Part shown: piece by piece, positions 1,417 through 64,000 of the stretch | How positions within the stretch are numbered: position 1 is the first letter of the stretch | Layout: the number at the start of each line of letters is the position of its first letter | Assembly (NCBI GenBank): GCA_001767955.1 | Contig: MEMO01000016.1 | Location: 39,404-103,403, forward strand | Direction: 5' to 3' | DNA from: Alphaproteobacteria bacterium RIFCSPLOWO2_01_FULL_40_26 | GTDB lineage: Bacteria; Pseudomonadota; Alphaproteobacteria; Rickettsiales; UBA1997 | DNA: 64,000 nucleotides | Program-made: the position numbers and the translations under genes | The notes under the pieces: model-generated | What the model saw: only the letters and a program-made list of their open reading frames with translations | What the model was told of the DNA's origin: nothing | The model's database searches: none

Positions 1417-2307
1417 TCAAATAGACTTCCCCTGCAAAAATAGTTCACGGGTTTTGATGGCTTTGGCAAAGCGCGAGAAAGCGAAGAGATAGCTGTAGAT
1501 CAGGCCGTTAAAGCCATAGATGAAATAGCGGCGCACGAAATAGGCTTTAAAAAAAGCAAAGATCGGGATGAAAAAAATTTTTAAAATTGACGGGTATTTG
1601 TCTTTCCTGAAAGCGTCATTTGCCTGCATTTGTGAATAGGAATTTATTTTCTCGATCCAGTGTGAGTAGGAGCGGAAGGATTGGTGGTGGATGATGTTTT
1701 TAAGTTGGAGGATCGTGCCTCGTGCCTCGTGCCTCGTGCTTCGTGGATTAAAATTACCGAAGCACGAAGCACGAAGCACGAAGCACGAAACATTCCAGAC
1801 ACAAAATTTTGTATAACAACCCTTTCCGGCATGGTTTGTTTCTTTCAGCATGACCGAATCATGCACCGAACTGTTTTTGAATCCGGCCAGATCGCAGTTG
1901 TAAAGGCGAAACTGATTGTAGTAATAAGCCCATTTTTTTGGCTTTTTTTCCTGTGGAAATTTATTGACGATTTTGATGCGAAATCCCGCTACATCATCGG
2001 CGATTTTTCCAGAAAAAATTTCTTTAATCTCCGCACATAATTCCTGCGAAATTTCTTCATCGGCATCAATGTTCAAAATCCATTTATTGCGACATTTCGA
2101 TTCACCAAAAATTTTCTGTTGGCCATAACCTTTCCATTCGTTGAACATCACTTTTGCACCGGCCTGAATGGCTGTTTCACAGGTTCTATCATTGCTTCCA
2201 GAATCAACCACCAGAATTTCATCAGCGATTTCTTTTGCCGCATTGATTACGGAAGCAATGCGATTGGCTTCATTTTTGGTTATGATAAAAATTGAAATCG
2301 GAATCAT
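1417..2307 (-). CDS. family 2 glycosyltransferase carrying an in-frame palindromic-repeat insertion
   Basis: GT2 N-terminal pattern: IFIITKNEANRI, VVDSGSNDRT, NIDADE. The segment GCYTKFCVWNVSCFVLRASCFGNFNPRSTRHEARG is encoded by repeat A1. Confidence 0.85.
   Translation of the reverse strand: MIPISIFIITKNEANRIASVINAAKEIADEILVVDSGSNDRTCETAIQAGAKVMFNEWKGYGQQKIFGESKCRNKWILNIDADEEISQELCAEIKEIFSGKIADDVAGFRIKIVNKFPQEKKPKKWAYYYNQFRLYNCDLAGFKNSSVHDSVMLKETNHAGKGCYTKFCVWNVSCFVLRASCFGNFNPRSTRHEARGTILQLKNIIHHQSFRSYSHWIEKINSYSQMQANDAFRKDKYPSILKIFFIPIFAFFKAYFVRRYFIYGFNGLIYSYLFAFSRFAKAIKTRELFLQGKSI
1690..1820. repeat. palindromic repeat family A, copy A1 (GTGCYTC heptad hairpin), inside the GT2 gene
   Basis: Arms tcgtgcctcgtgcctcgtgcctcgtgcttcgtgg / cgaagcacgaagcacgaagcacgaagcacga around loop attaaaattacc. 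The outer arm agacacaaaattttgtataacaac matches copy A2. Boundaries approximate. Confidence 0.85.
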
Positions 2308-4934: not shown

Positions 4935-5795
4935 ATGAAAAAACATTCCGCCTTCTCCCTAATAGAACTCTCAATCGTCATCTTAATCATCGGTATCCTA
5001 GTCGCCGGTATAACCCAATCTTCCCGCCTGGTTAAAGCAATGAAGCTAAAAACCGCTCAAAACCTAACCAAAAGCTCTGCCGTTAACAGCATTAAAAATC
5101 TGACCATATGGTATGAAACAACCGTCGATGAAAGTTTCGCTGATAGTGAAGAAGAAAATAACACAGACATCAGCACCTGGAACGACATAAACCCACAATC
5201 ATCATCCAAAAGCAATGCCACCCAATCAAGCACCAAACCGCAATATATCGAAGGTGCGATGAATGGTCTTCCGGTTGTGAGGTTTAATGGAACTGATGAT
5301 TTCTTAAATTTCGACGGAACTCTACTCGTCAACACCAACTATACGATTTTTGTGGTGGAGCAGAGGAGGACTGGCACCGGTATTAACAAACATTTTCTTG
5401 GCGGATCCGGAGTGGCAACCAATACTAACCTGCATCTAGGATATCGTAACGATACGACAGTTACACAAGATCATTACAGCAATGCTATAAACTACACAAT
5501 CCCCGCCTACTCCTCCCCAATACCAAGAATCCACACTTTCTGGTTCAGCAACGCATCCGGAAATGGCAAAAAATACTGGCTTAATGGTGGAACAACCGCC
5601 GACGCATTCGACACTTCCCAAACAGCTTATGTGGCATCTTATGCTGGATCGGCAATTGGAAGATATGCTAGTACCAGCGACTACTTCAACGGCGACGTCG
5701 CCGAAATCATCATCTTCAACCGCGCTCTCAACACCGAAGAAAGACAAGCAGTTGAAAGCTATTTGAGCCAGAAATTTAATGTTAAAATTAGCTGA
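4935..5795 (+). CDS. prepilin-type N-terminal methylation domain fused to a LamG-like domain (paralog P2)
   Basis: N-terminus identical to P1 for the first 26 residues (MKKHSAFSLIELSIVILIIGILVAGI). VVRFNGTDDFL and GDVAEIIIFNRALNTEERQAVESYLSQKFNVKIS. No Cys. Confidence 0.8.
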   Translation: MKKHSAFSLIELSIVILIIGILVAGITQSSRLVKAMKLKTAQNLTKSSAVNSIKNLTIWYETTVDESFADSEEENNTDISTWNDINPQSSSKSNATQSSTKPQYIEGAMNGLPVVRFNGTDDFLNFDGTLLVNTNYTIFVVEQRRTGTGINKHFLGGSGVATNTNLHLGYRNDTTVTQDHYSNAINYTIPAYSSPIPRIHTFWFSNASGNGKKYWLNGGTTADAFDTSQTAYVASYAGSAIGRYASTSDYFNGDVAEIIIFNRALNTEERQAVESYLSQKFNVKIS

Positions 5796-8132: not shown

Positions 8133-9473
8133 CTACCAACGTATCTCGAATTTTTTGCGTAGGAAAATTGCTGCAGAATTTAGAATAATTAAAAATCCAA
8201 GTAGAACCAAAATTGCTGCTGCGGTTTTTTCGGCGAAACCTGATTCGGGTGAATCTGACCAAAGATAGATTTGCACCGGTAAGACTGATGTGGGATCGGT
8301 AAAATTTTGTGGGATATCGGCGATGAAAGCGACCATGCCAATCATCAAAAGTGGAGCAGTTTCGCCCAAAGCGCGCGAAATCGCCAAAATTGTTCCGGTC
8401 ATAATTCCCGGTACTGCAAGCGGTAAAAGATGATGCAAAGTGATCTGCATTTTTGAAGCGCCAAGAGCTGCAGCTCCATCACGAATTGAGTTTGGAATCG
8501 AACGAATAGTATTGCGTGTAGCGATAATAATAACCGGCAAAACCAGCATGAACAAAGTCATCCCGCCGACTAAAGATGAGGAACGCGGCAAATTCATAAA
8601 TTGCAGATAAACTGTTAATCCAAGCAGGCCGTAGATGATTGATGGAATTGCCGCGAGGTTATTGATGCTGATTTCAATTATGTCGGTAAAACGATTTTTT
8701 GGCGCGAATTCTTCAAGATAAAAGGCGCACATTATGCCAATTGGAAAAGCAAAAATCAGAAAAATTACCATCACCAAAAATGATCCGATCAAGCCAGCGC
8801 CAATGCCGGCAATTTCCGGTTCACGCGAATCGGCAAAAGTAAAAAATTTCCAGTTAAAAACTTTTCTTACCTGATTTTTTGTTTTCAGATCAGAAAGCCA
8901 GCGAATCTGATTGTCATTTAGTGAAGAGATATTTTGGTGTTTAAAAAACATATCGGCTTTTGATGCGGCACTTATCCAGAAAATTTTTAAATCGGGATTT
9001 TTCTTGATTTGTTCTTTTATCTCAAGGTTTGCGGCCTTGCTTACCAATTGATAAAGTGAGTTAATTTCAGCAAGTTTTGTGGCTTCGGGAAATCTTTGTC
9101 TCATTGCGTCTTTTATGGCTTGGCGATAATCATCTTCTTTCACGCTGATTTCCAAGGCGATTTCACTTCGGTAAAAATTGCTTTTGGCAAAAATCATAGC
9201 AAACAAAATCAGTAAAAATGCTAAAGCAAAGCCAACCGAAATCATGCCAAACAGCATAAATCGTGATTCGGCGGCATGACGCTTTTTTAGATTTCCAATT
9301 GTTCTAGAGCCTATCTTCAAATTCATTTGTCTTTGATTTTTTGTAAATTTTTGCTCATTTTTTTGAAGAATTTTTTGCAGTATGTCTAATACAGCTGCAA
9401 AATTCTTCAAAAAAGTCGCTAAAAATTTACAAAAAATCAAAGACAAATGAATTTGAAGACAGGCTCTAGCCAT
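8133..9473 (-). CDS. pstA: phosphate ABC transporter permease PstA (start uncertain: 9473 or 9326)
   Basis: C-terminal permease core (ISRALGETAPLLMIG) follows pstC. The first 49 codons are read through palindromic element G1. ATG 9473 overlaps the pstC stop by 8 nt. An alternative ATG at 9326 lies inside the element. Confidence 0.85.
   Translation of the reverse strand: MARACLQIHLSLIFCKFLATFLKNFAAVLDILQKILQKNEQKFTKNQRQMNLKIGSRTIGNLKKRHAAESRFMLFGMISVGFALAFLLILFAMIFAKSNFYRSEIALEISVKEDDYRQAIKDAMRQRFPEATKLAEINSLYQLVSKAANLEIKEQIKKNPDLKIFWISAASKADMFFKHQNISSLNDNQIRWLSDLKTKNQVRKVFNWKFFTFADSREPEIAGIGAGLIGSFLVMVIFLIFAFPIGIMCAFYLEEFAPKNRFTDIIEISINNLAAIPSIIYGLLGLTVYLQFMNLPRSSSLVGGMTLFMLVLPVIIIATRNTIRSIPNSIRDGAAALGASKMQITLHHLLPLAVPGIMTGTILAISRALGETAPLLMIGMVAFIADIPQNFTDPTSVLPVQIYLWSDSPESGFAEKTAAAILVLLGFLIILNSAAIFLRKKFEIRW
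9304..9469. mobile_element. MITE-like palindrome family G, copy G1
   Basis: Near-perfect 166-bp palindrome ctagagcctatcttcaaattcatttgtctttgattttttgtaaattttt...aaaaatttacaaaaaatcaaagacaaatgaatttgaagacaggctctag, flanked by TA. Confidence 0.85.
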
Positions 9474-14958: not shown

Positions 14959-15855
14959 ATGTCAGTTCTAATCAATAAAAACACCAAAGTTATTTGCCAG
15001 GGAATCACTGGTTCACAAGGCACTTTTCACACTGAACAAGCGCTTGCTTATGGTACTAAAATGGTTGGCGGTGTCACGCCTGGCAAGGGTGGAAGTCAAC
15101 ATCTTCATCTTCCGGTTTTTGACAGTGTTTTTGAAGCCAAACAAAAAACCGCTTGCAATGCTTCAGTGATTTACGTGCCGCCAGCTTTTGCTGCCGACGC
15201 CATTCTCGAAGCAATTGATGCCGAGATTGAACTGATTGTCTGCATCACTGAAGGCATCCCAGTGCTTGACATGGTAAAAGTGAAAAAATCTTTGTGCGGC
15301 TCAAAATCGCGTTTGATCGGCCCCAACTGCCCAGGCATAATCACTCCGGGTGAATGCAAAATCGGCATCATGCCCGGCCATATTCACAAGCGCGGCAAAA
15401 TCGGCATCGTTTCACGTTCCGGCACTTTAACTTACGAAGCAGTTCATCAAACAACCAATACTGGCTTGGGACAAAGCACCTGCATCGGCATTGGTGGTGA
15501 TCCGGTCAATGGCACCAGTTTTATTGATTGCCTTGATATGTTTTTGTCCGATCCGGAAACCGAAGCCATGATCATGATTGGCGAAATCGGCGGAACTGAC
15601 GAGGAAGAGGCTGCCGAATTCATAAAAGCCGAAGCTAAAAAGGGCCATAAAAAACCAATCGTCGGTTTCATCGCCGGCAGAACAGCTCCTCCGGGACGCA
15701 GAATGGGACATGCCGGTGCCATAATTTCCGGCGGCAAAGGCGGTGCGGAAGGAAAAATTGACGCAATGAAATCAGCCGGAATCACCGTCGCCGACAGCCC
15801 GGCAGCGCTTGGTGAAACCATGCTTAAATTACTAAAAAACCCCAATAACGCTTAA
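14959..15855 (+). CDS. sucD: succinyl-CoA ligase alpha subunit; last 4-5 codons and the stop come from repeat C1
   Basis: SRSGTLTYE and [12 protein letters not shown] motifs. The tail ...[11 protein letters not shown] is encoded by the element terminus ccccaataacgcttaa. Confidence 0.95.
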
Positions 15856-16073
15856 GGAATTATGGCTTAAGTCTACAAACTCTAAGTAAAACCAATAAAC
15901 TCCACCACACTGTCACCCCGCACTTGTTGCGGGGTCCATTTGGTCGCAACCAATAAAATCAAGTCTTTGACGAGATGGACCCCGCAACAAGTGCGGGGTG
16001 ACAGTGTGGTGAGATTTGTGATTTAGCTTAGAGTCTGTAAATTTGAATCTGGGTTTCTTAAACGTTATTGGGG
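15840..16073. repeat. composite palindrome C1 (family C shell with a family B core)
   Basis: Terminal inverted repeats ccccaataacgcttaag / cttaaacgttattgggg (15840-15856 / 16057-16073). The inner arms are also inverted. Confidence 0.85.
15902..16011. repeat. palindromic repeat family B, copy B1 (core of C1)
   Basis: ccaccacactgtcaccccgcacttgttgcggggtcca ... tggaccccgcaacaagtgcggggtgacagtgtggtg. Each arm is itself a hairpin (ccccgca cttgt tgcgggg). Confidence 0.9.
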
Positions 16074-16110
16074 TTAAAAAACTAATTTTAACACTAACCA
16101 CAGGAGACAT

Positions 16111-17260: not shown

Positions 17261-17293
17261 ACTCTCTCAATGGTTTAGACAGGTTCTTAAATT

Positions 17294-17318
17294 GTCATCC
17301 CGAACTTGTTTCGGGATC
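17294..17318. repeat. family B-like single hairpin arm (diverged, B3)
   Basis: gtcatcccgaacttgtttcgggatc compared with the family B arm gtcaccccgcacttgttgcggggtc. Confidence 0.6.
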
Positions 17319-17325
17319 TATTGTG

Positions 17326-17423
17326 GCCATGTCGCAAATCAACTTCCTGAAAAATCTGAACCCTTGATTTACAAGGGCTCGTCGAGTTTAAAAATGGTAA
17401 GAAATGGGGATTTGCGACAGTCC
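17326..17423. repeat. palindromic repeat family E, copy E1 (intergenic)
   Basis: ccatgtcgcaaatc...cccttgatttacaaggg...gatttgcgacagtc. About 94 percent identical by eye to the reverse complement of copy E2 at 41387-41484. Confidence 0.9.
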
Positions 17424-17623
17424 CATTGTGAAAGACACAATATTTTTGATAACAACTAAAAAAATAGCAAACTCGGAAAGAAGTTTGAAACCTGAATTTT
17501 GTGCAAAAGTTCTCATGAAGAATTATTCGAAAAACATTTTGTTGATTTTTATTTAGGCGTAGAGTTATAGATTATTTGGTTGTTTAGTTTAACATTTTTT
17601 TAAATTTTATTTATAACATTTCT

Positions 17624-35562: not shown

Positions 35563-36480
35563 CTATTTCCCGCCCCCTAAAAACGCGTAAGAAAGAATTT
35601 TATAACAAAGCTTCGCCGCTAGAAAATCGCAGGAATGAAGTTGTTTTATTGGCGCAAGCTCAACCACATCAGCGCCAACAAATTTGGAAATTTTGCCAGC
35701 TTCGCGGATGATATCGAGCGCGTCTTCCCACATCACGCCTCCTGGTTCCGGCGTGCCGGTTGCCTGCATTAAACTTGAATCAAATCCATCCAAATCAAAG
35801 GTAACAAAAACCGGACGATTTTTTAGCGGCGCAACAATTTTTTTTGCGTCCCATTTTCTTTTGTCTTTACCAAAGTGAATGGCGATGCGGTGGCGATTGG
35901 CTTCAAGATACGGAATTTCACTCGCGGAAATATTTCTGATGCCACATGAAATCAGTGTTGAAATCGGATAATCCATAACACGACGAAGCGCTGAAGCATG
36001 CGAATAATGCTCGCCATCATAACCATCGCGCAAATCGGCATGGGCATCAAAATGCAAAATTGCCAGATCGGGATATTTTTTGACGAAAGGCCGAATTGAG
36101 CCGGCGGTAATTGAATGCTCACCGCCAAGAATCAGCGGAAACTTTCCCGCTGCCAAAATTTTTTCTGTGATTTTTTCGAGCTGCTTCAGGGATTTTACAA
36201 CGGACGCGTGATCAATTTTTTGCTCTTTCATCGTCACCACGCCATATTTGCGAAAAGGTTCGCACCAAAATTCTTCATCAAAAAGCTCAACTTGCTTTGA
36301 GGCTTTGATAATGGCTGCAGGCCCTTTAGACGTACCTCCGCCATAGCTCACCGATTTTTCCAAACCAAATGGCACGACAACAACTTTTGCGTCATCAAGC
36401 GATTTCAGATATTTTTCTTCAATGCCAAGAAAGCCGGATTTTTGCGGTAGAAGATTTGAGAGAACAAAATTTTTGGTCAT
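35563..36480 (-). CDS. speB: agmatinase (ureohydrolase family)
   Basis: GGEHSIT, HFDAHADLRD, TFDLDGFD and EPGG manganese-site motifs. Confidence 0.85.
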   Translation of the reverse strand: MTKNFVLSNLLPQKSGFLGIEEKYLKSLDDAKVVVVPFGLEKSVSYGGGTSKGPAAIIKASKQVELFDEEFWCEPFRKYGVVTMKEQKIDHASVVKSLKQLEKITEKILAAGKFPLILGGEHSITAGSIRPFVKKYPDLAILHFDAHADLRDGYDGEHYSHASALRRVMDYPISTLISCGIRNISASEIPYLEANRHRIAIHFGKDKRKWDAKKIVAPLKNRPVFVTFDLDGFDSSLMQATGTPEPGGVMWEDALDIIREAGKISKFVGADVVELAPIKQLHSCDFLAAKLCYKILSYAFLGGGK

Positions 36481-37670
36481 AAAAAATTCAAAACATTAAC
36501 ATGTCCCATCTTGCGCCCGGCAACAATTTTCTCTTTGCCGTAAAGATGAATTTTTGCACGCGGATTTTTGTAAAATTTGTCCAGATTTTTTACTTCATCG
36601 CCGATTAAATTTTTCATAAAACCGCAAGAATGAAATTTTGTTGAACCAAGCGGAAGAGCAGTAATAGCGCGGATCAATTGCTCAAATTGTGAAGTAACCG
36701 CCCCATCCATCGAAAAATGTCCGGAGTTGTGCGGTCTTGGCGCCAACTCATTTACGAGCAATTCACTGCCAACAACAAAAAATTCAACCGCCAAAATTCC
36801 AACCAAATTAATTTCTTTGGCAATTTTTTTTGCCAGGCTTTGCGCCTTTATTCTCAAGCCTTTTGGGATTTGTGCCGGATAAAAACTTTGATCCAAAATG
36901 CCGTTTTTGTGAATGTTGGTTAACGGCTCATAAGCAGCAATTTCACCATTTTTTGAACGCGCAACTATCACCGAAATTTCCGAATCAAATGGACAAAATT
37001 TTTCCAGAATTAATTTTGGACCCCGCAACAAGTGCGGGGTGACAGGCTTCGGAGTGATGCTAGCGCTTGTCACCCCGCACTTGTTGCTTGTCACCCCGCA
37101 CTTGTTGCTTGTCACCCCGCACTTGTTGCTTGTCACCCCGCACTTGTTGCGGGGTCCATCTATCAAACTACTCCAGACTCTATCAGCATCCACAGCGTTT
37201 TTCAAAACAAACTGCCCCTTGCCATCATAACCCATCATGGCGGTTTTTAAAATGGCTTTGCCAAATTTTTTTAGATTTTTTTGCAGAACTTCACGACTTG
37301 GAATTTCAGCATATTCCGTGGCTTTTATGCCAATCGAATTAAGAAAATTTTTTTCCAAAATACGATTTTGTGTGATTTTTAAAATTTGCGGCTTCGGACA
37401 GACTTCAACTTGTGAAGCAAGATAATCAGCGGTTTCAAAAGGGATATTTTCAAATTCAAAAGTGGCGATATCGACCATCTTGCTAAATTTTTTCAGCGCC
37501 ATTTTGTCGGAATAATCAGCATTGATTATTTGATTGGTTACAAAACTCGCCGGAGAATTTTTTTGATCGCTAAACACAACGCTGCGAAAGCCCATCATAT
37601 GCGCATAAAAACAGGTCATGCGTCCCAATTGCCCGCCGCCAATGATACCAATGGTTGTGATTTTTTTCAT
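36477..37670 (-). CDS. purK: N5-carboxyaminoimidazole ribonucleotide synthase carrying an in-frame 47-codon repeat insertion
   Basis: ATG 37670 gives MKKITTIGIIGGGQLGRM. ATP-grasp core GYDGKGQ and C-terminal HLYGK...GRKMGHV. The insert GPRNKCGVTS(NKCGVTS)x3...VTPHLLRGP is encoded by repeat B2. Confidence 0.9.
   Translation of the reverse strand: MKKITTIGIIGGGQLGRMTCFYAHMMGFRSVVFSDQKNSPASFVTNQIINADYSDKMALKKFSKMVDIATFEFENIPFETADYLASQVEVCPKPQILKITQNRILEKNFLNSIGIKATEYAEIPSREVLQKNLKKFGKAILKTAMMGYDGKGQFVLKNAVDADRVWSSLIDGPRNKCGVTSNKCGVTSNKCGVTSNKCGVTSASITPKPVTPHLLRGPKLILEKFCPFDSEISVIVARSKNGEIAAYEPLTNIHKNGILDQSFYPAQIPKGLRIKAQSLAKKIAKEINLVGILAVEFFVVGSELLVNELAPRPHNSGHFSMDGAVTSQFEQLIRAITALPLGSTKFHSCGFMKNLIGDEVKNLDKFYKNPRAKIHLYGKEKIVAGRKMGHVNVLNFL
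37018..37158. repeat. palindromic repeat family B, copy B2, with a 4x 21-nt internal tandem array, inside purK
   Basis: ggaccccgcaacaagtgcggggtgac...(cttgtcaccccgcacttgttg)x4...cggggtcc, about 141 bp (47 codons). Confidence 0.92.
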
Positions 37671-37727
37671 AGCTTCAAAGAGAAAGCGCGGCAAGCTAGG
37701 AAGTGAGACAACATTTTCAACAAATTT

Positions 37728-38429
37728 ATGCCGCAAAAATTCCAACAATTAAAAAAGGCGAAACGCTTGAAAAAATCTTCGCAGAAATGGCTGTTGCGAC
37801 AAATTAATGATCCTTTTATTGAGCGCGCCAAAGCTGAAGGATGGCGCTCTCGTGCTGCTTTCAAGATTATTGAAATTGATCAGAAATTTAAAATTTTTAA
37901 AAAAGGAAAAATCGTGGTTGATCTTGGCGCTGCGCCGGGAGGATGGTCGCAATATGCGGTGCAAAAAGTGGGTGAGGGCAATGTGATTGCGATTGACCTT
38001 TTGCCAATTGATCCGATTCCGGGAGTGAAATTTTTTGTTCAGAATTTTTTGTCAGAAGATGCGGCAAAAAAAATAATTTCCGGACTGGAAGGAAAATGCG
38101 ATATTCTGCTTTCCGACATGGCCGCAAACACCATGGGCGATAGACAAACCGATCATTTACGCATCATTGCACTGCTCGAAGAATCGCTAAATCTGGCGGA
38201 AAAAATTTTACGCCAAGGCGGATGTTTTGTGGGAAAAATTTTTCAAGGCGGAAGTTCCAACGAAATTCTAAAAAAACTCAGAAAAAACTTTTCGACCGTA
38301 AAATATTTCAAACCCGAATCTTCACGCAAAGATTCGGCAGAAACTTATTTGGTAGCATCGGGATTCACTCCGTATGACTCTGAAGAGGTGGAAGAAGGGA
38401 GGGGGGAGTTGTTTCGACAATTGCGCTAA
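37728..38429 (+). CDS. rlmE: 23S rRNA (uridine2552-2'-O)-methyltransferase RlmE/FtsJ
   Basis: SSQKWLLRQINDPFIERAKAEGWRSRAAFK and SAM motif VVDLGAAPGGWSQ. Confidence 0.92.
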   Translation: MPQKFQQLKKAKRLKKSSQKWLLRQINDPFIERAKAEGWRSRAAFKIIEIDQKFKIFKKGKIVVDLGAAPGGWSQYAVQKVGEGNVIAIDLLPIDPIPGVKFFVQNFLSEDAAKKIISGLEGKCDILLSDMAANTMGDRQTDHLRIIALLEESLNLAEKILRQGGCFVGKIFQGGSSNEILKKLRKNFSTVKYFKPESSRKDSAETYLVASGFTPYDSEEVEEGRGELFRQLR

Positions 38430-40102: not shown

Positions 40103-41122
40103 TTATTTTCCCGCAATCCCAAGTTTTTCAAAAAGTCTGCGATCGCGCTCCATTTCCGGGTTTGAGGTGGTAAGTAATTTTTCGCCATAAAAAATCGAAT
40201 TAGCTCCGGCAAGAAAACACAAAGCTTGGGTTTGCTCATTCATATTTTCACGGCCGGCTGACAAACGCACCACAGATTTTGGCATCATGATGCGCGCAAC
40301 GGCAATGGTTCGGACAAATTCGAATTGATCGAGATCTTCAACTTTTTCAAGCGGCGTGCCCTTGACTTTCACCAACATGTTGATTGGAACTGATTCGGGA
40401 TGCTTCGGCAAATTAGCGAGCACGATCAGCATTTTTGCCCGATCTTCACGCATTTCTCCCATGCCGACAATTCCGCCCGAACAAACATTCAGGCCGGCTT
40501 CGCGCACGTTTTTGAGGGTGTTGAGACGATCCTCAAAACTGCGCGTGGAAATAATTTCCGAATAAAATTCTGGCGAAGAGTCGATATTGTGGTTGTAGTA
40601 ATCAAGCCCGGCATCCTTGAGTTTCTTGCTTTGCGAGTCGGTTAGCATTCCAAGCGTCATACAGGTTTCAAGGCCGGTTTTTTTTACCGCATCGACAATT
40701 TCACAAATCTTTTTTACATCGCGATCATGAAGATTTCTCCATGCCGCTCCCATGCAAAACCTTGAAGCACCAGCTTCTTTCGCTGCTTTGGCGGCATCAA
40801 GAATTTTTGAAATTTCCATCAGCGCAGATTTTTCAAGACCAGTGTTATAATGCGCCGATTGCGGACAATATTTGCAATTTTCCGGACAGGAACCGGTTTT
40901 GATGCTTAAAAGCGTGCTGATTTGCACCGCATTCGGATTGTGATTTTGGCGATGAATTTCCGCCGCTTTGAAAACAAGATCGGAAAATGGCAATACAAAA
41001 AGTTGTTCGACTTCCGCAACCTTCCAATCATGACGAGTATTAAAATCGTAAGATAAAACGGGTAATTCCGTTGATTCCGTTTGGCAGAGTTCTTTCATTA
41101 TTCTTTCCAGATAATATGGCAT
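40103..41122 (-). CDS. bioB: biotin synthase (alternative start 41098)
   Basis: Radical-SAM [30 protein letters not shown]. Confidence 0.93.
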
Positions 41123-42183
41123 TTGAAGAGCTCGCCCATTTGATCAGGCGCGATTAAACGATCAATAGCGGAATTTTCGTTTGGCAATTTTTTGCGGCGC
41201 TCTTCGATGCCAAGCGAAATTAAAAATTCCCTTTGCGTTAATAATTGCGAATTCAGATTAAAATTTTTGGCGATTTTATCGAGCGCGGAAAAATCAACAT
41301 GGGCGGTAATGTCGCAATCTTTTTCAAACAGGCTAACTTTGCGGTGATTTTTTACAGCTTGCAAAGTGTTGGCAAATTCATTTTGAGACTGTCGCAAATC
41401 CCCATTTCTTACCATTTTTAAACTCGACGAGTCCTTGTAAATCAAGGGATCAGATTTTTCAGAAAGTTGATTTGCGACATGGTCATTTTGGACATAGCCA
41501 TAATCAAAATTGATGGCGATTCCACCGTGAATATTCAAGGCTTCGCAGAGTTGTGTCATAAATTTTCGCGCAGCGAAACTATATTCAAAAACCGCACCGA
41601 TTCTAGCGAGGGAGGTTATTTCTTTTTCCACAAACTGATGAAGTTTCAAATCAAAATTCCTGATCACAAACCTTTCTGAATCAATCAAACGCTCGCACCA
41701 GCCAATGTCGGTTTTGATGAATTGGTCGATGGGAAAACAATCAAAAAGTTCGTTGGAAAGGAAAAAAATTTGCCCATTTTTTTGTTGCAGAAACTCATCA
41801 AAACTTTCATGCCATTCAACTTCAAAATCCTTCAATTTTTCCTGCTGAATTTTTCTTAAAACCGGATTGATCTCAATGATGTGAAGTTCTGCAAACTCAA
41901 GAAAATCAATGGCTTGTGAGATTTTTTTATCGGCAAATTTTTTGATTGTGATCAGAATATCAAAAAACAAAGTTCCCTTTCCCGCGCCCATTTCCACCAG
42001 AGCAACTTTTGACTTTTTTGCAGAAAAAATCTGCAAAAAACAGGCGGCAATTAATTCACCAAACACCTGAGAAATTTCCGGAGAAGTTATGAAATCGGCG
42101 AGAGGATTTTTGGTGTGGTAATAGCCTTGTTCTTTATCAAACAAGGCTTCTTGCATGAAATGTGAAATACCTATGGCCGCCAA
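41098..42183 (-). CDS. class I SAM-dependent methyltransferase, NDUFAF7/MidA (DUF185)-like, carrying an in-frame repeat insertion
   Basis: [27 protein letters not shown] and DYGY...TLQAVKNH...DITAHVDFS pattern. The segment [35 protein letters not shown] is encoded by repeat E2. Confidence 0.8.
41387..41484. repeat. palindromic repeat family E, copy E2, inside the methyltransferase gene
   Basis: gactgtcgcaaatcccca...tccttgtaaatcaaggga...gatttgcgacatggtc, reverse-complement orientation relative to E1. Confidence 0.9.
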
Positions 42184-44741: not shown

Positions 44742-44819
44742 TTTTTAATGAATTTTCGCACAACATAAATTCCGATGCAGTAGTTTCAAGATTGCTTTCA
44801 AAGATTTTATTTTTATACT

Positions 44820-44995
44820 CAATCCAGCTGAAGAAGCCGATTTATGACGAAGCATTTTTGAGGAAAAATTGCGACCCCGTCGACGCGCAGCGCGACAAAA
44901 CAGAATGCGGGCTGTATCAAGTGATACAGCCAAATTCTCCGAGCAAATTTTTACCAAAAAGGCGAAGTCAGAAATCGGCTTCTTCAGCTGGATTG
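44820..44995. repeat. palindromic repeat family H, copy H1 (grpE-clpP spacer)
   Basis: Terminal inverted repeat caatccagctgaagaagccgattt / aaatcggcttcttcagctggattg. Internal hairpin gctgtatcaagtgatacagc. Confidence 0.88.
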
Positions 44996-45031
44996 GGTAT
45001 AGAAATTCGCAAAATTAAATTTCACAAATTC

Positions 45032-46945: not shown

Positions 46946-47109
46946 TAGAGCCTGTCTTAAAACCCAACGTGTCTCGATTTTCCATAAATTTTGAGCGACT
47001 TTTTGGCAAAATTTTGCCGCTGTATTCAACATACTGCAAAAAATTTTGCCAAAAAACGAGCCAAAATTTATGGAAAATCGAGGCGCGGTGGGTTTTAAGA
47101 CAGGCTCTA
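46946..47109. mobile_element. MITE-like palindrome family G, copy G2
   Basis: tagagcctgtcttaaaacccaac..tctcgattttccataaattttg...caaaatttatggaaaatcgag..gtgggttttaagacaggctcta, 164 bp, TA-flanked. Confidence 0.85.
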
Positions 47110-49870: not shown

Positions 49871-50107
49871 CCTCGATAACGCTTAAGAAAATTTGTAATC
49901 ACTTTACTCTCCATGGGTCATTTACCACTCACAAAATATTACCCCTCACAAAATATTACCCCTCACCCCAACCCTCTCCCACAAGGGGAGAGGGAGTAGC
50001 GCCGAATTCGGACTAACTCCCTCTCCCCTTGTGGGAGAGGGTTGGGGTGAGGGGTAATGTTCTTCAAAGAGTAAGGTTGAGAGCATTTTTCCTAAGCGTT
50101 ATTGGGG
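49871..50107. repeat. composite palindrome C2 (family C shell with family D core 49956-50057)
   Basis: Termini cctcgataacgcttaag / cctaagcgttattgggg. Core ttacccctcaccccaaccctctcccacaaggggagagggag...ctccctctccccttgtgggagagggttggggtgaggggtaa. Short tandem ttacccctcacaaaata units on the left arm. Confidence 0.9.
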
Positions 50108-56260: not shown

Positions 56261-56425
56261 TAAGAACCTGTCCTAAATCTTTTTTAACCCCATATTTTGC
56301 CCTGTTTTGGCTTATTTTTTGCCAAAATTTTTCAAAATATGTCCATATATTTATCAAAATTTTGACAAAAAAACGCTCAAAACATGACAAAATCTGTGAT
56401 TAAAAAAGATCTAGGACAGGTTCTA
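56261..56425. mobile_element. MITE-like palindrome family G, copy G3
   Basis: taagaacctgtcctaaatctttttt...aaaaaagatctaggacaggttcta, 165 bp, TA-flanked. It contains the annotated ATG of the AsmA-like gene. Confidence 0.8.
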
Positions 56426-63862: not shown

Positions 63863-64000
63863 TCCCAATAACGCTTAAGAAAATTTGTAATCACTTTACT
63901 CTTTCTAGGTCATTTACCCCTCACAAAATATTACCCCTCACAAAAAAATATTACCCCTCACCCCAACCCTCTCCCACAAGGGGAGAGGGAGTTATACCAA
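63863..64000. repeat. composite palindrome C3 (family C terminus plus family D core), truncated by the window end
   Basis: tcccaataacgcttaagaaaatttgtaatcactttactc...ttacccctcaccccaaccctctcccacaaggggagagggag is nearly identical to the left half of C2. Confidence 0.88.

Follow-up and report, generated by a model that had tools for sequence, protein, structure and literature searches.

A palindromic, TGTC-tagged hairpin dimer with a 21-nt tandem array lies in frame in purK of an uncultured alphaproteobacterium

Repetitive extragenic palindromic (REP) sequences of the CGTC superfamily combine a CGTC tag, often TGTC and also CCTC, with an 8–9 bp stem, a loop of 4–5 nt and a CCA tail; they occur mainly in Alphaproteobacteria, are present in five phyla and have no known dedicated transposase (PMC3733652). 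Dimers are frequent, mostly with the tags outside ('HH') and rarely with the tags inside ('TT'), and units or dimers are found in frame in known genes, with clusters encoding 43–82 aa; in Xanthomonas, recB genes harbor different REPs at about the same site (PMC3733652). Two of the Rickettsia palindromic elements (RPEs) of Rickettsia conorii have been assigned to this superfamily, RPE-6 to CGTC-1 and RPE-4 to CGTC-4 (PMC3733652). A 2024 review, which covers the work of Ogata et al. (2000, 2002), describes RPE-1 as a palindrome of ~100–150 bp that lies in frame in unrelated housekeeping genes, is translated into additional peptide and is judged compatible with the fold of the host protein; in-frame RPE insertions are described as unusually frequent in Rickettsia and as a possibility elsewhere too (PMC10969869). 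Here we analyze an element inside purK, the gene for N5-carboxyaminoimidazole ribonucleotide synthase, in a 64,000-nt stretch (the window) of contig MEMO01000016.1 from Alphaproteobacteria bacterium RIFCSPLOWO2_01_FULL_40_26. The segment at 37018–37158, which a sequence-only reading of the window had described as a palindromic element translated within purK, is probably a selfish or neutral TGTC-tagged REP dimer that is filtered by selection and tolerated in a PurK loop, rather than an adaptation of PurK. In-frame palindromic insertion is already known as an event, and the purK case is a new, well-documented example.

The open reading frame (ORF) reads across the insert as ...VWSSLID-GPRNKCGVTS(NKCGVTS)x3-ASITPKPVTPHLLRGP-KLILEKF..., with 37018–37158 encoding GPRNKCGVTS(NKCGVTS)x3ASITPKPVTPHLLRGP. 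The boundaries of the 141-nt insert follow a codon-based convention and are accurate to ±2 nt; the palindrome proper spans 37017–37159 (TGGACC...GGTCCA(T), 142–143 nt), and its inverted-repeat arms (37017–37047 and 37128–37158) are 31 nt long and 97% complementary. Its elementary unit is a hairpin of 27–28 nt, TGTC-ACCCCGCA-CTTGT-TGCGGGGT-CCA, in which an unpaired tag and a tail enclose a stem of 8 bp with a 5-nt loop (Table 1). On the sense strand of purK, a complete hairpin running from tail to tag is followed by three more copies of GCAACAAGTGCGGGGTGACAA, a unique 20-nt spacer and a second complete hairpin in reverse, so that the tags point inward. The repeated unit comprises part of the 5′ arm (GCA), the loop, the 3′ arm, the tag and one further base, and the final array copy on the plus strand belongs to the complete right-hand REP. 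Tandem Repeats Finder assigned 37065–37150 a period of 21, 4.1 copies, 100% matches and a score of 172. The spacer GGCTTCGGAGTGATGCTAGC is unlike the spacers of other REP copies, and the purK element has no stops in three of its six frames.

As RNA, the insert can adopt a long hairpin fold whose stem has 28 perfect base pairs (−89.6 kcal/mol, z = −9.85). No terminator-like site was found in or beside it, and a reading as an intrinsic terminator was rejected on that ground. The insert yielded no intein or intron motif, and Rfam searches of the whole window at gathering thresholds and of the insert at E values up to 10 returned only tRNAs and sub-threshold, miRNA-like hairpin noise. Among the features of miniature inverted-repeat transposable elements, the 31-nt arms are present; the flanks (GAT before GGACC and AAA after GGTCC) form no direct repeat. 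Compared to the empty site, four codons (AK[SN]Q) are gone and the codons L-I-D are present.

The host gene appears to be a working purK. The minus-strand frame is open across 36477–37748 and its listed start is a TTG at 37748; the likely start is the ATG at 37670, which gives the N-terminus MKKITTIG. The product scores 425.7 bits against the NCBIfam PurK equivalog NF004676 (cutoff 387) and matches PurK structures in the PDB with E = 4e-77. Both matches are broken in two around the insert, and query residues 165–215 stand opposite ~5 residues of Bacillus anthracis PurK (4dlk, 169–175). An AlphaFold2 model built from a 70-sequence alignment reached a predicted template modeling (TM) score of 0.82 with a core predicted local distance difference test (pLDDT) score of ~90. 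Residues 172–216 of the model have pLDDT below 50 and no secondary structure, and are flanked by a helix (159–170) and a strand (220–224). Foldseek comparison of the model with solved PurK structures gave TM scores of 0.82–0.87 and a root mean square deviation (rmsd) of ~2.2 Å, including 0.82/0.86 and 2.2 Å for 3q2o. In the PDB search alignment, the strand that follows the insert is matched to E. coli PurK from residue 150 onward, a position that we take, after the E. coli structure paper, to be the boundary of the B (lid) and C domains. In the model, the insert is predicted to be a disordered loop that connects the last ATP-grasp B-domain helix with the first C-domain strand. The segment had earlier been placed in the ATP-grasp region of a protein that would be of normal PurK size without it; the position between the B and C domains, the predicted surface disorder and the ~350-aa length of orthologues agree with this.

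Nucleotide comparisons by the Nei–Gojobori method, with the insert left out, gave nonsynonymous and synonymous divergences (dN/dS) of 0.134/0.924 against the uninserted orthologue of contig L121, 0.164/0.976 against the inserted one of L002 and 0.076/0.48 between L002 and L003. These values indicate that purK is under purifying selection, with a ratio of ~0.15, and together with the equivalog-level score they speak against a pseudogene, a reading that was rejected. The gene order ftsJ–purK–arginase–atpH is kept in all contigs examined; the purK genes compared are therefore orthologues.

Among relatives, the PurK loop was found empty, occupied by arrays of different length or occupied by another palindrome. 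Most of the 70 closest PurK sequences are ~350 aa long and read ...W-[AS]-Q-A-K-[SN]-Q-K-LILEKF at the site, and empty-site DNA was available from L121, among the closest uninserted orthologues. A reading of the segment as conserved PurK sequence was ruled out by these orthologues without it, which bears out the claim that it is lineage-specific. The 90%-identity protein cluster of the window PurK has 11 members from NCBI, ENA, JGI and read-derived sets. The four-unit allele is present in two NCBI metagenome-assembled genome (MAG) assemblies (L126 and L127). The protein P0123, from L001, has three NKCGVTS units instead of four and an insert of 40 residues compared to 47; over 7.27 kb, its contig and the window are 99.7% identical, with a difference of exactly one 21-nt unit at the array. 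This three-unit allele lies on a 27.7-kb contig with conserved synteny.

More distant PurK proteins, ~75% identical to that of the window (P0002–P0005), carry the same hairpin at the same position, with orientation and frame unchanged, around different interiors. The interior of P0002 is (VTPHSQL)x3, a 7-residue array on the other arm; in P0004, GECGVTS repeats are present and the second hairpin has been lost; in P0003 and P0005 the spacers are short and unique. P0025 and P0047 (L003), which nest in this clade, have a different palindrome, GTAGGGGCTGGCCTTGTGCTAGCCC..GCGACCACAAGGGTCTCCCC, in the same loop. This is a GTAG-type REP dimer encoding VGAGLVLARLRPQGSP, and it replaces the TGTC REP plus several flanking codons. 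The DNA-level comparison of the clade was made with L002 (P0004) and L003 (P0047). All six insert length variants (the window, P0123, P0002, P0003, P0004 and P0005) are open.

In neighbor joining with the insert masked, the clade of P0002–P0005, P0025 and P0047 was recovered in 200 of 200 bootstraps and was sister to the window lineage in 0 of 200. Uninserted orthologues retain the AK[SN]Q codons and both inserted alleles are without them, so simple excision cannot explain the empty sites. Both inserted alleles share the codons L-[I/V]-D (TTGATAGAT and TTGGTCGAT) directly before the hairpin. Since the clades are never sisters and AK[SN]Q is kept at empty sites, the PurK loop appears to have been occupied at least twice, unless the inserted allele was exchanged laterally. 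Elsewhere in this protein set, P0064 has a 41-aa in-frame insert before the same PurK helix, P0055 has a 31-aa insert within the C domain, and P0044 and P0005/P0047 have lineage-specific 4-aa inserts at other places in PurK. The sequences compared suggest that repeat insertion into genes is common in this bacterial group.

The hairpin module recurs within the window and well beyond it. Allowing up to 3 mismatches, the window contains the 19-mer CAACAAGTGCGGGGTGACA 8 times (0.04 expected), and together with the inverted arms and the open ORF this confirms a repeated palindromic element in frame in purK. The copy at 15903–16011, between sucD and recA, had been taken for the same element as a non-coding core. 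The 27-nt hairpin module is indeed shared, but the dimer is of a different type, with tags outward, a 37-nt A+T-rich spacer and stops in four of six frames; it is nested inside a larger palindrome (15838–16075), and its spacer resembles that of L011, a locus of another genome. TGTC stands before the stem in all window copies. The tail is CCA in all four complete window modules and C-[C/T]-[G/A] across loci.

In species-representative genomes, the exact 20-mer CCCCGCAACAAGTGCGGGGT was found, among the matches listed, in at least 117 stretches from 54 assemblies as counted by accession prefix. Most of them are alpha- and gammaproteobacterial MAGs labeled Rickettsiales, Coxiellaceae and similar, and a few are Fibrobacter, Ignavibacteria, Alistipes, Heliobacteriaceae, Anaerovoracaceae and Peribacteraceae; no Rickettsia record was among them. 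The 27-nt module is identical, flanks included, in 54 assemblies across phyla (L004–L120), the 20-mer being flanked by TGACA in 115 and by GGA or AGA in 112 of 157 occurrences. A 2025 survey found the similarity of REP consensus sequences across genomes to be generally low (PMC12306157), and the cross-phylum identity of the purK module stands out somewhat against it. One gammaproteobacterial MAG (JBDTIZ01) has at least 28 REP loci, many at contig ends. The window organism has two REP loci in 64 kb plus three insertion sites on contigs that are likely from the same organism. REP pairs within 400 nt were arranged with tags outward in 20 cases and inward in 9, the purK copy being of the rarer type.

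Viral contigs contained the 20-mer in 1 case among 2.9 million, which makes phages not an obvious vector. Phmmer with an IS200 TnpA query found no IS200-like protein among 3984 ORFs of the window and loci, a weak test since REP-associated tyrosine transposases (RAYTs) are divergent; none of the ten window ORFs scanned with Pfam is a transposase. A full-text literature search for the REP sequence returned no match, nor was the sequence found in the text and supplements of PMC3733652. The 52-aa insert peptide gave 16 candidates among 5.8 billion proteins, none of them significant, the query being too short and compositionally biased.

Scanning metagenomes with a 39-mer that spans two array units retrieved four contigs of 41–42% G+C, which have other repeat families in common with the window and probably derive from the same or a very close organism. 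In these, the identical 21-nt array lies in frame at two sites of a gene for a two-domain ABC ATPase (7 units in one assembly and 4 in another at site 1; 5 units at site 2) and in frame in a prephenate dehydrogenase gene, where it is read as HPALVAC x4. Further MAGs carry the module in frame in genes for CarA, a chorismate-binding enzyme (24-nt array), a PAP2 phosphatase (21-nt array) and a Sir2 deacetylase. The host genes were confirmed by Pfam (ABC_tran, PDH_N/PDH_C, CarA, Chorismate_bind, PAP2 and SIR2). One locus, L114, was considered as a further purK copy and rejected, as it is the carA gene on the other strand. In addition to the purK frame, the array unit is read in other frames elsewhere, as QQVRGDK and HPALVAC. 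The sequence-only reading had the purK array expand locally while preserving the frame. Its copy number does vary in frame between nearly identical contigs, but the identical unit in 4–7 copies in the ABC ATPase and prephenate dehydrogenase genes does not fit a purely local origin; the array is therefore a feature of an element subfamily, or homogenized between copies, with only the copy number locally variable.

Array periods differ between coding and non-coding DNA. In Pfam-confirmed genes the period is 21 at six loci and 24 at one, all seven being multiples of three, compared to 5 of 18 for non-coding arrays, whose periods are 19–25 and 40 nt (hypergeometric p = 0.0016). This contrast is direct evidence, at the level of sequence, of ribosome read-through, being the pattern expected if the arrays are translated and not bypassed or excised. 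For the purK insert, translation into a disordered surface loop of 47 residues is most likely. Two chimeric structures were noted at array-bearing loci: contig L124 joins the two REP dimers of the ABC ATPase gene without the 630 bp between them, and P0127 is a 256-aa product in which the 5′ half of purK and the flank of the ABC gene meet inside the array. Either assembly collapse across repeats or real recombination between copies would account for them.

The arrays are also polar. Around 131 complete hairpins of the window and loci, extra copies of the 3′ arm plus tag were found 54 times on the tag side and never on the tail side, and the mirror half (tail plus 5′ arm) was found 0 times on the tail side and once on the tag side; growth of the arrays is thus always from the tag end. 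In each lineage, the array subfamily of the purK copy is that lineage's own, and therefore either a locally active subfamily inserted recently or gene conversion took place among copies.

These observations are accommodated by the following proposal. A REP dimer would have become fixed in the codons for the loop between the PurK lid-domain helix and the first C-domain strand. The gene stays open because the hairpin is stop-free in most frames and the spacer between the two hairpins is built of 21-nt (7-codon) partial hairpin copies. The array would gain or lose whole 21-nt units, probably by replication slippage or unequal exchange, and selection would remove frame-breaking variants, such that in genes only multiple-of-three periods survive. 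The neutrality of the insert and the slippage mechanism are what we infer from these patterns. Several points weigh against the proposal. Symmetric slippage does not predict a half-REP polarity of 54 to 0, and a directed process may be at work. Neutrality is not guaranteed because the loop lies at the lid-domain hinge, 4–5 residues upstream of the invariant E-K-F motif, and the 28-bp perfect stem of the mRNA could influence its translation or stability. Of the seven coding arrays, four have one unit in common and probably one genome, so they are not independent. We infer translation of the insert from the intact frame in six length variants, the periods divisible by three and purifying selection, and the survey covered 64 kb of the genome and a few related contigs.

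A directed alternative holds that insertion and copying at the tag are structure- or site-specific and that the REP is active rather than a passive fossil. It draws on the tag-end polarity, on 21-nt subfamilies spreading or being homogenized among surface loops of housekeeping enzymes, and on the one PurK hinge loop that held a REP in two non-sister clades and later a GTAG-type REP within one of them; we consider it unlikely, although it would open a way to the machinery behind the movement of CGTC REPs and point to a natural generator of 7-residue, copy-number-variable repeats in enzymes. The recurrence at one site could instead reflect one ancient insertion that was later lost in most lineages, as the two clades share REP position, orientation and frame and the L-[I/V]-D codons (TTGATAGAT and TTGGTCGAT) before the REP. 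This is doubtful, since the window clade and the P0002–P0005/P0025/P0047 clade were sisters in none of the 200 bootstraps, the AK[SN]Q of uninserted orthologues is common to distant outgroups and could not have been restored by excision, and each lineage's purK copy has its own array subfamily. Retention of a REP at the site in two clades across ~25% protein divergence, the different REP in the same loop of P0025 and P0047, the stability of the RNA fold (−89.6 kcal/mol, z = −9.85) and the adjacency to the invariant EKF motif could also be taken to mean that the insert has been co-opted. At the protein level, a Cys-rich, length-variable loop (one Cys per 7 residues) would modulate ATP-grasp closure, bind a metal or sense redox state; at the RNA level, the very stable hairpin would tune the stability or translation of the purK mRNA. 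Such a role is improbable: the peptide is merely what the REP encodes in that frame, with other frames used in other genes, spacer content and length vary freely among relatives and P0004 has lost one arm, most close orthologues have no insert and disorder is predicted for the loop.

Very stable hairpins within coding RNA are able to promote bypass by the ribosome in other systems, examples being T4 gene 60 and the mitochondrial 'byp' elements. The purK insert might accordingly escape translation by bypass, RNA excision or protein splicing, or purK might be a decaying pseudogene. Both are very hard to reconcile with the data, as a skipped insert would be free in length and in stops, yet all six variants are open and in-gene array periods are always divisible by three; the insert has no intein or intron motif and no Rfam family match, and a dN/dS of ~0.15 with an equivalog-level score speaks against decay. 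Repeats do confuse assemblers, as the P0127 and L124 junctions may illustrate, but an assembly artefact as the source of array and palindrome can be practically dismissed: the four-unit allele is in two NCBI MAG assemblies, with identical or near-identical proteins from ENA, JGI and read-derived sources, the three-unit allele has conserved synteny along its 27.7-kb contig, and relatives carry the REP at the same site. A tolerated REP dimer filtered by selection thus probably accounts for the purK segment.

Table 1. Coordinates of purK, its insert and related REP features in the window.
Feature	Position	Strand	Description and basis
purK (N5-carboxyaminoimidazole ribonucleotide synthase)	36477..37670	-	397 aa from ATG; ORF, NCBIfam, PDB, AlphaFold2, dN/dS
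In-frame insert	37018..37158	-	47 codons, REP dimer with tags inward; absent from ~350-aa orthologues
Complete REP module, tail to tag	37017..37044	+	TGG-ACCCCGCA-ACAAG-TGCGGGGT-GACA; 8-bp stem, 5-nt loop; purK codons VTPHLLRGP
Unique 20-nt spacer GGCTTCGGAGTGATGCTAGC between left REP and array	37045..37064	.	Encodes ASITPKP
21-nt tandem array	37065..37150	-	Unit GCAACAAGTGCGGGGTGACAA on purK sense strand, 4.1 copies
Complete REP module, tag to tail	37131..37158	+	TGTC-ACCCCGCA-CTTGT-TGCGGGGT-CCA; purK codons GPRNKCGVT (leading)
Non-coding REP dimer, tags outward	15911..16003	.	REPs 15911-15938 and 15976-16003
Degenerate REP-like match AAACAAGTTCGGGATGACA, 3 mismatches	17293..17311	-	Motif scan

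Other repeat families were recorded in the window and at the loci. A second family of palindromes has an in-frame copy in a family-2 glycosyltransferase gene (1713–1789; ORF 1417–2307, minus strand); it consists of opposed 7-nt arrays, (TCGTGCC)x4.7 and (CGAAGCA)x4.6, and encodes ...CVWNVSCFVLRASCFGNFNPRSTRHEARGT..., and a similar non-coding copy is located at 2335–2440, just upstream of the neighboring DsbA-like gene. A ~99-nt repeat family, GACTGTCGCAAATC...GATTTGCGACATGG, splits the Methyltransf_28 match of a MidA-like gene in frame (41384–41482; ORF 41098–42183, minus strand) and is also present at 17325–17427, in an intergenic position adjoining a tRNA, and at 5221–5319 of L123, inside the ABC ATPase ORF with the two REP dimers. 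Two larger palindromes (15838–16075 and 49871–50107) have the ends CCCCAATAACGCTTAAG...CTTAAGCGTTATTGGGG; the center of the former is the tags-outward TGTC REP dimer, and the latter hosts another REP dimer, CCCTCTCCC-ACAAG-GGGAGAGGG. Tandem arrays of 17–20 nt, TTACCCCTCACAAAATA, lie beside a CCCTCTCCCACAAGGGGAGAGGG hairpin at 49922–49966 and 63914–63961. This hairpin represents another REP family with partial-unit arrays, and it shares the loop ACAAG/CTTGT with the purK REP and with the GTAG-type REP of L003. Four long inverted repeats (9304–9469, 44809–45006, 46946–47109 and 56263–56424) have arms of 64–78 nt that are 81–92% complementary, and are located at the starts of genes or close to them (a PstA-like permease, ClpP, downstream of ClpX, and AsmA). 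Loci L056, L053, L020, L072 and others contain more small hairpin families beside the REP, such as CGTCATCCCGCACTTGTTGCGGGATC, CATGCCGCACTTGTTGCGGCATC, a VIPAKAGIQ-encoding hairpin and GGATTGCTTCGCTCTCGCTCGCAATGACG, all with a CGTC-like layout of tag and tail.

With the purK locus, in-frame palindromic repeats, for which Rickettsia is the best-known host, are also on record from a free-standing lineage of uncultured groundwater Alphaproteobacteria. The locus also constitutes a natural experiment on what a core metabolic enzyme tolerates, as one loop is empty in many orthologues and elsewhere holds a TGTC REP dimer with five spacers, a GTAG REP dimer, or three versus four units as a polymorphism in one population. 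The way in which CGTC-type REPs multiply may be hinted at by the half-REP polarity and by the identity of the 27-nt module across phyla. In practical terms, such repeats cause chimeric contigs, and affected genes should not be annotated as pseudogenes.

The element was compared with other mobile or repeated palindromes. Fungal mitochondria harbor mobile G+C-rich palindromes (GC clusters, double-hairpin elements and 'byps') that invade coding genes of an A+T-richer genome, and some of these are bypassed by the ribosome. Theirs is a different genetic system, and the frame constraints at purK indicate read-through instead. GTAG REPs, REPINs (REP doublets forming hairpins) and bacterial interspersed mosaic elements (BIMEs), which are mobilized by RAYTs (IS200/IS605-like Y1 transposases), resemble the purK element in having a short, imperfect hairpin with an unpaired tag and inverted dimers, whose spacers are conserved or variable and which are able to form one long hairpin. 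The purK tag is TGTC rather than GTAG and no Y1 transposase was found in the window and loci, in the weak phmmer test described above; a GTAG-type dimer does fill the same purK loop in P0025 and P0047. Neisseria intergenic mosaic elements (NIMEs) are intergenic arrays of 50–150 bp units bounded by complete dRS3 repeats. The dRS3/NIME arrays (CGTC-1, PMC3733652) are likewise CGTC-type hairpins in clusters or arrays. The units of the purK-type array are instead partial REPs of 19–25 nt and can be intragenic.

RPE-1 shares with the purK element the palindromic insertion in frame in functional genes. It is a long, single palindrome family specific to Rickettsia, whereas the purK element pairs two copies of a 27-nt REP and adds tandem half-units; its module occurs across many genera and phyla. 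Rickettsia are not known to have de novo purine synthesis; the host, having purK, is therefore not a Rickettsia. Compared to the CGTC REPs, the tag, 8-bp stem, 5-nt loop and CCA tail of the purK module match, with sizes closest to CGTC-2, and the tags-outward majority of this REP family (20 versus 9) parallels the 'HH' predominance. At stem positions 1 and 2, A-T pairs are described as 'almost invariably' present and the purK module has A-T followed by C-G, a departure that does not amount to exclusion. The purK copy is itself of the rare TT type, its spacer is a polar partial-REP array with a 21-nt period, and its host is an uncultured groundwater alphaproteobacterium that retains purK. Most features fit the assignment of the purK hairpin as a TGTC-tagged member of the CGTC REP superfamily, to which RPE-4 and RPE-6 also belong.

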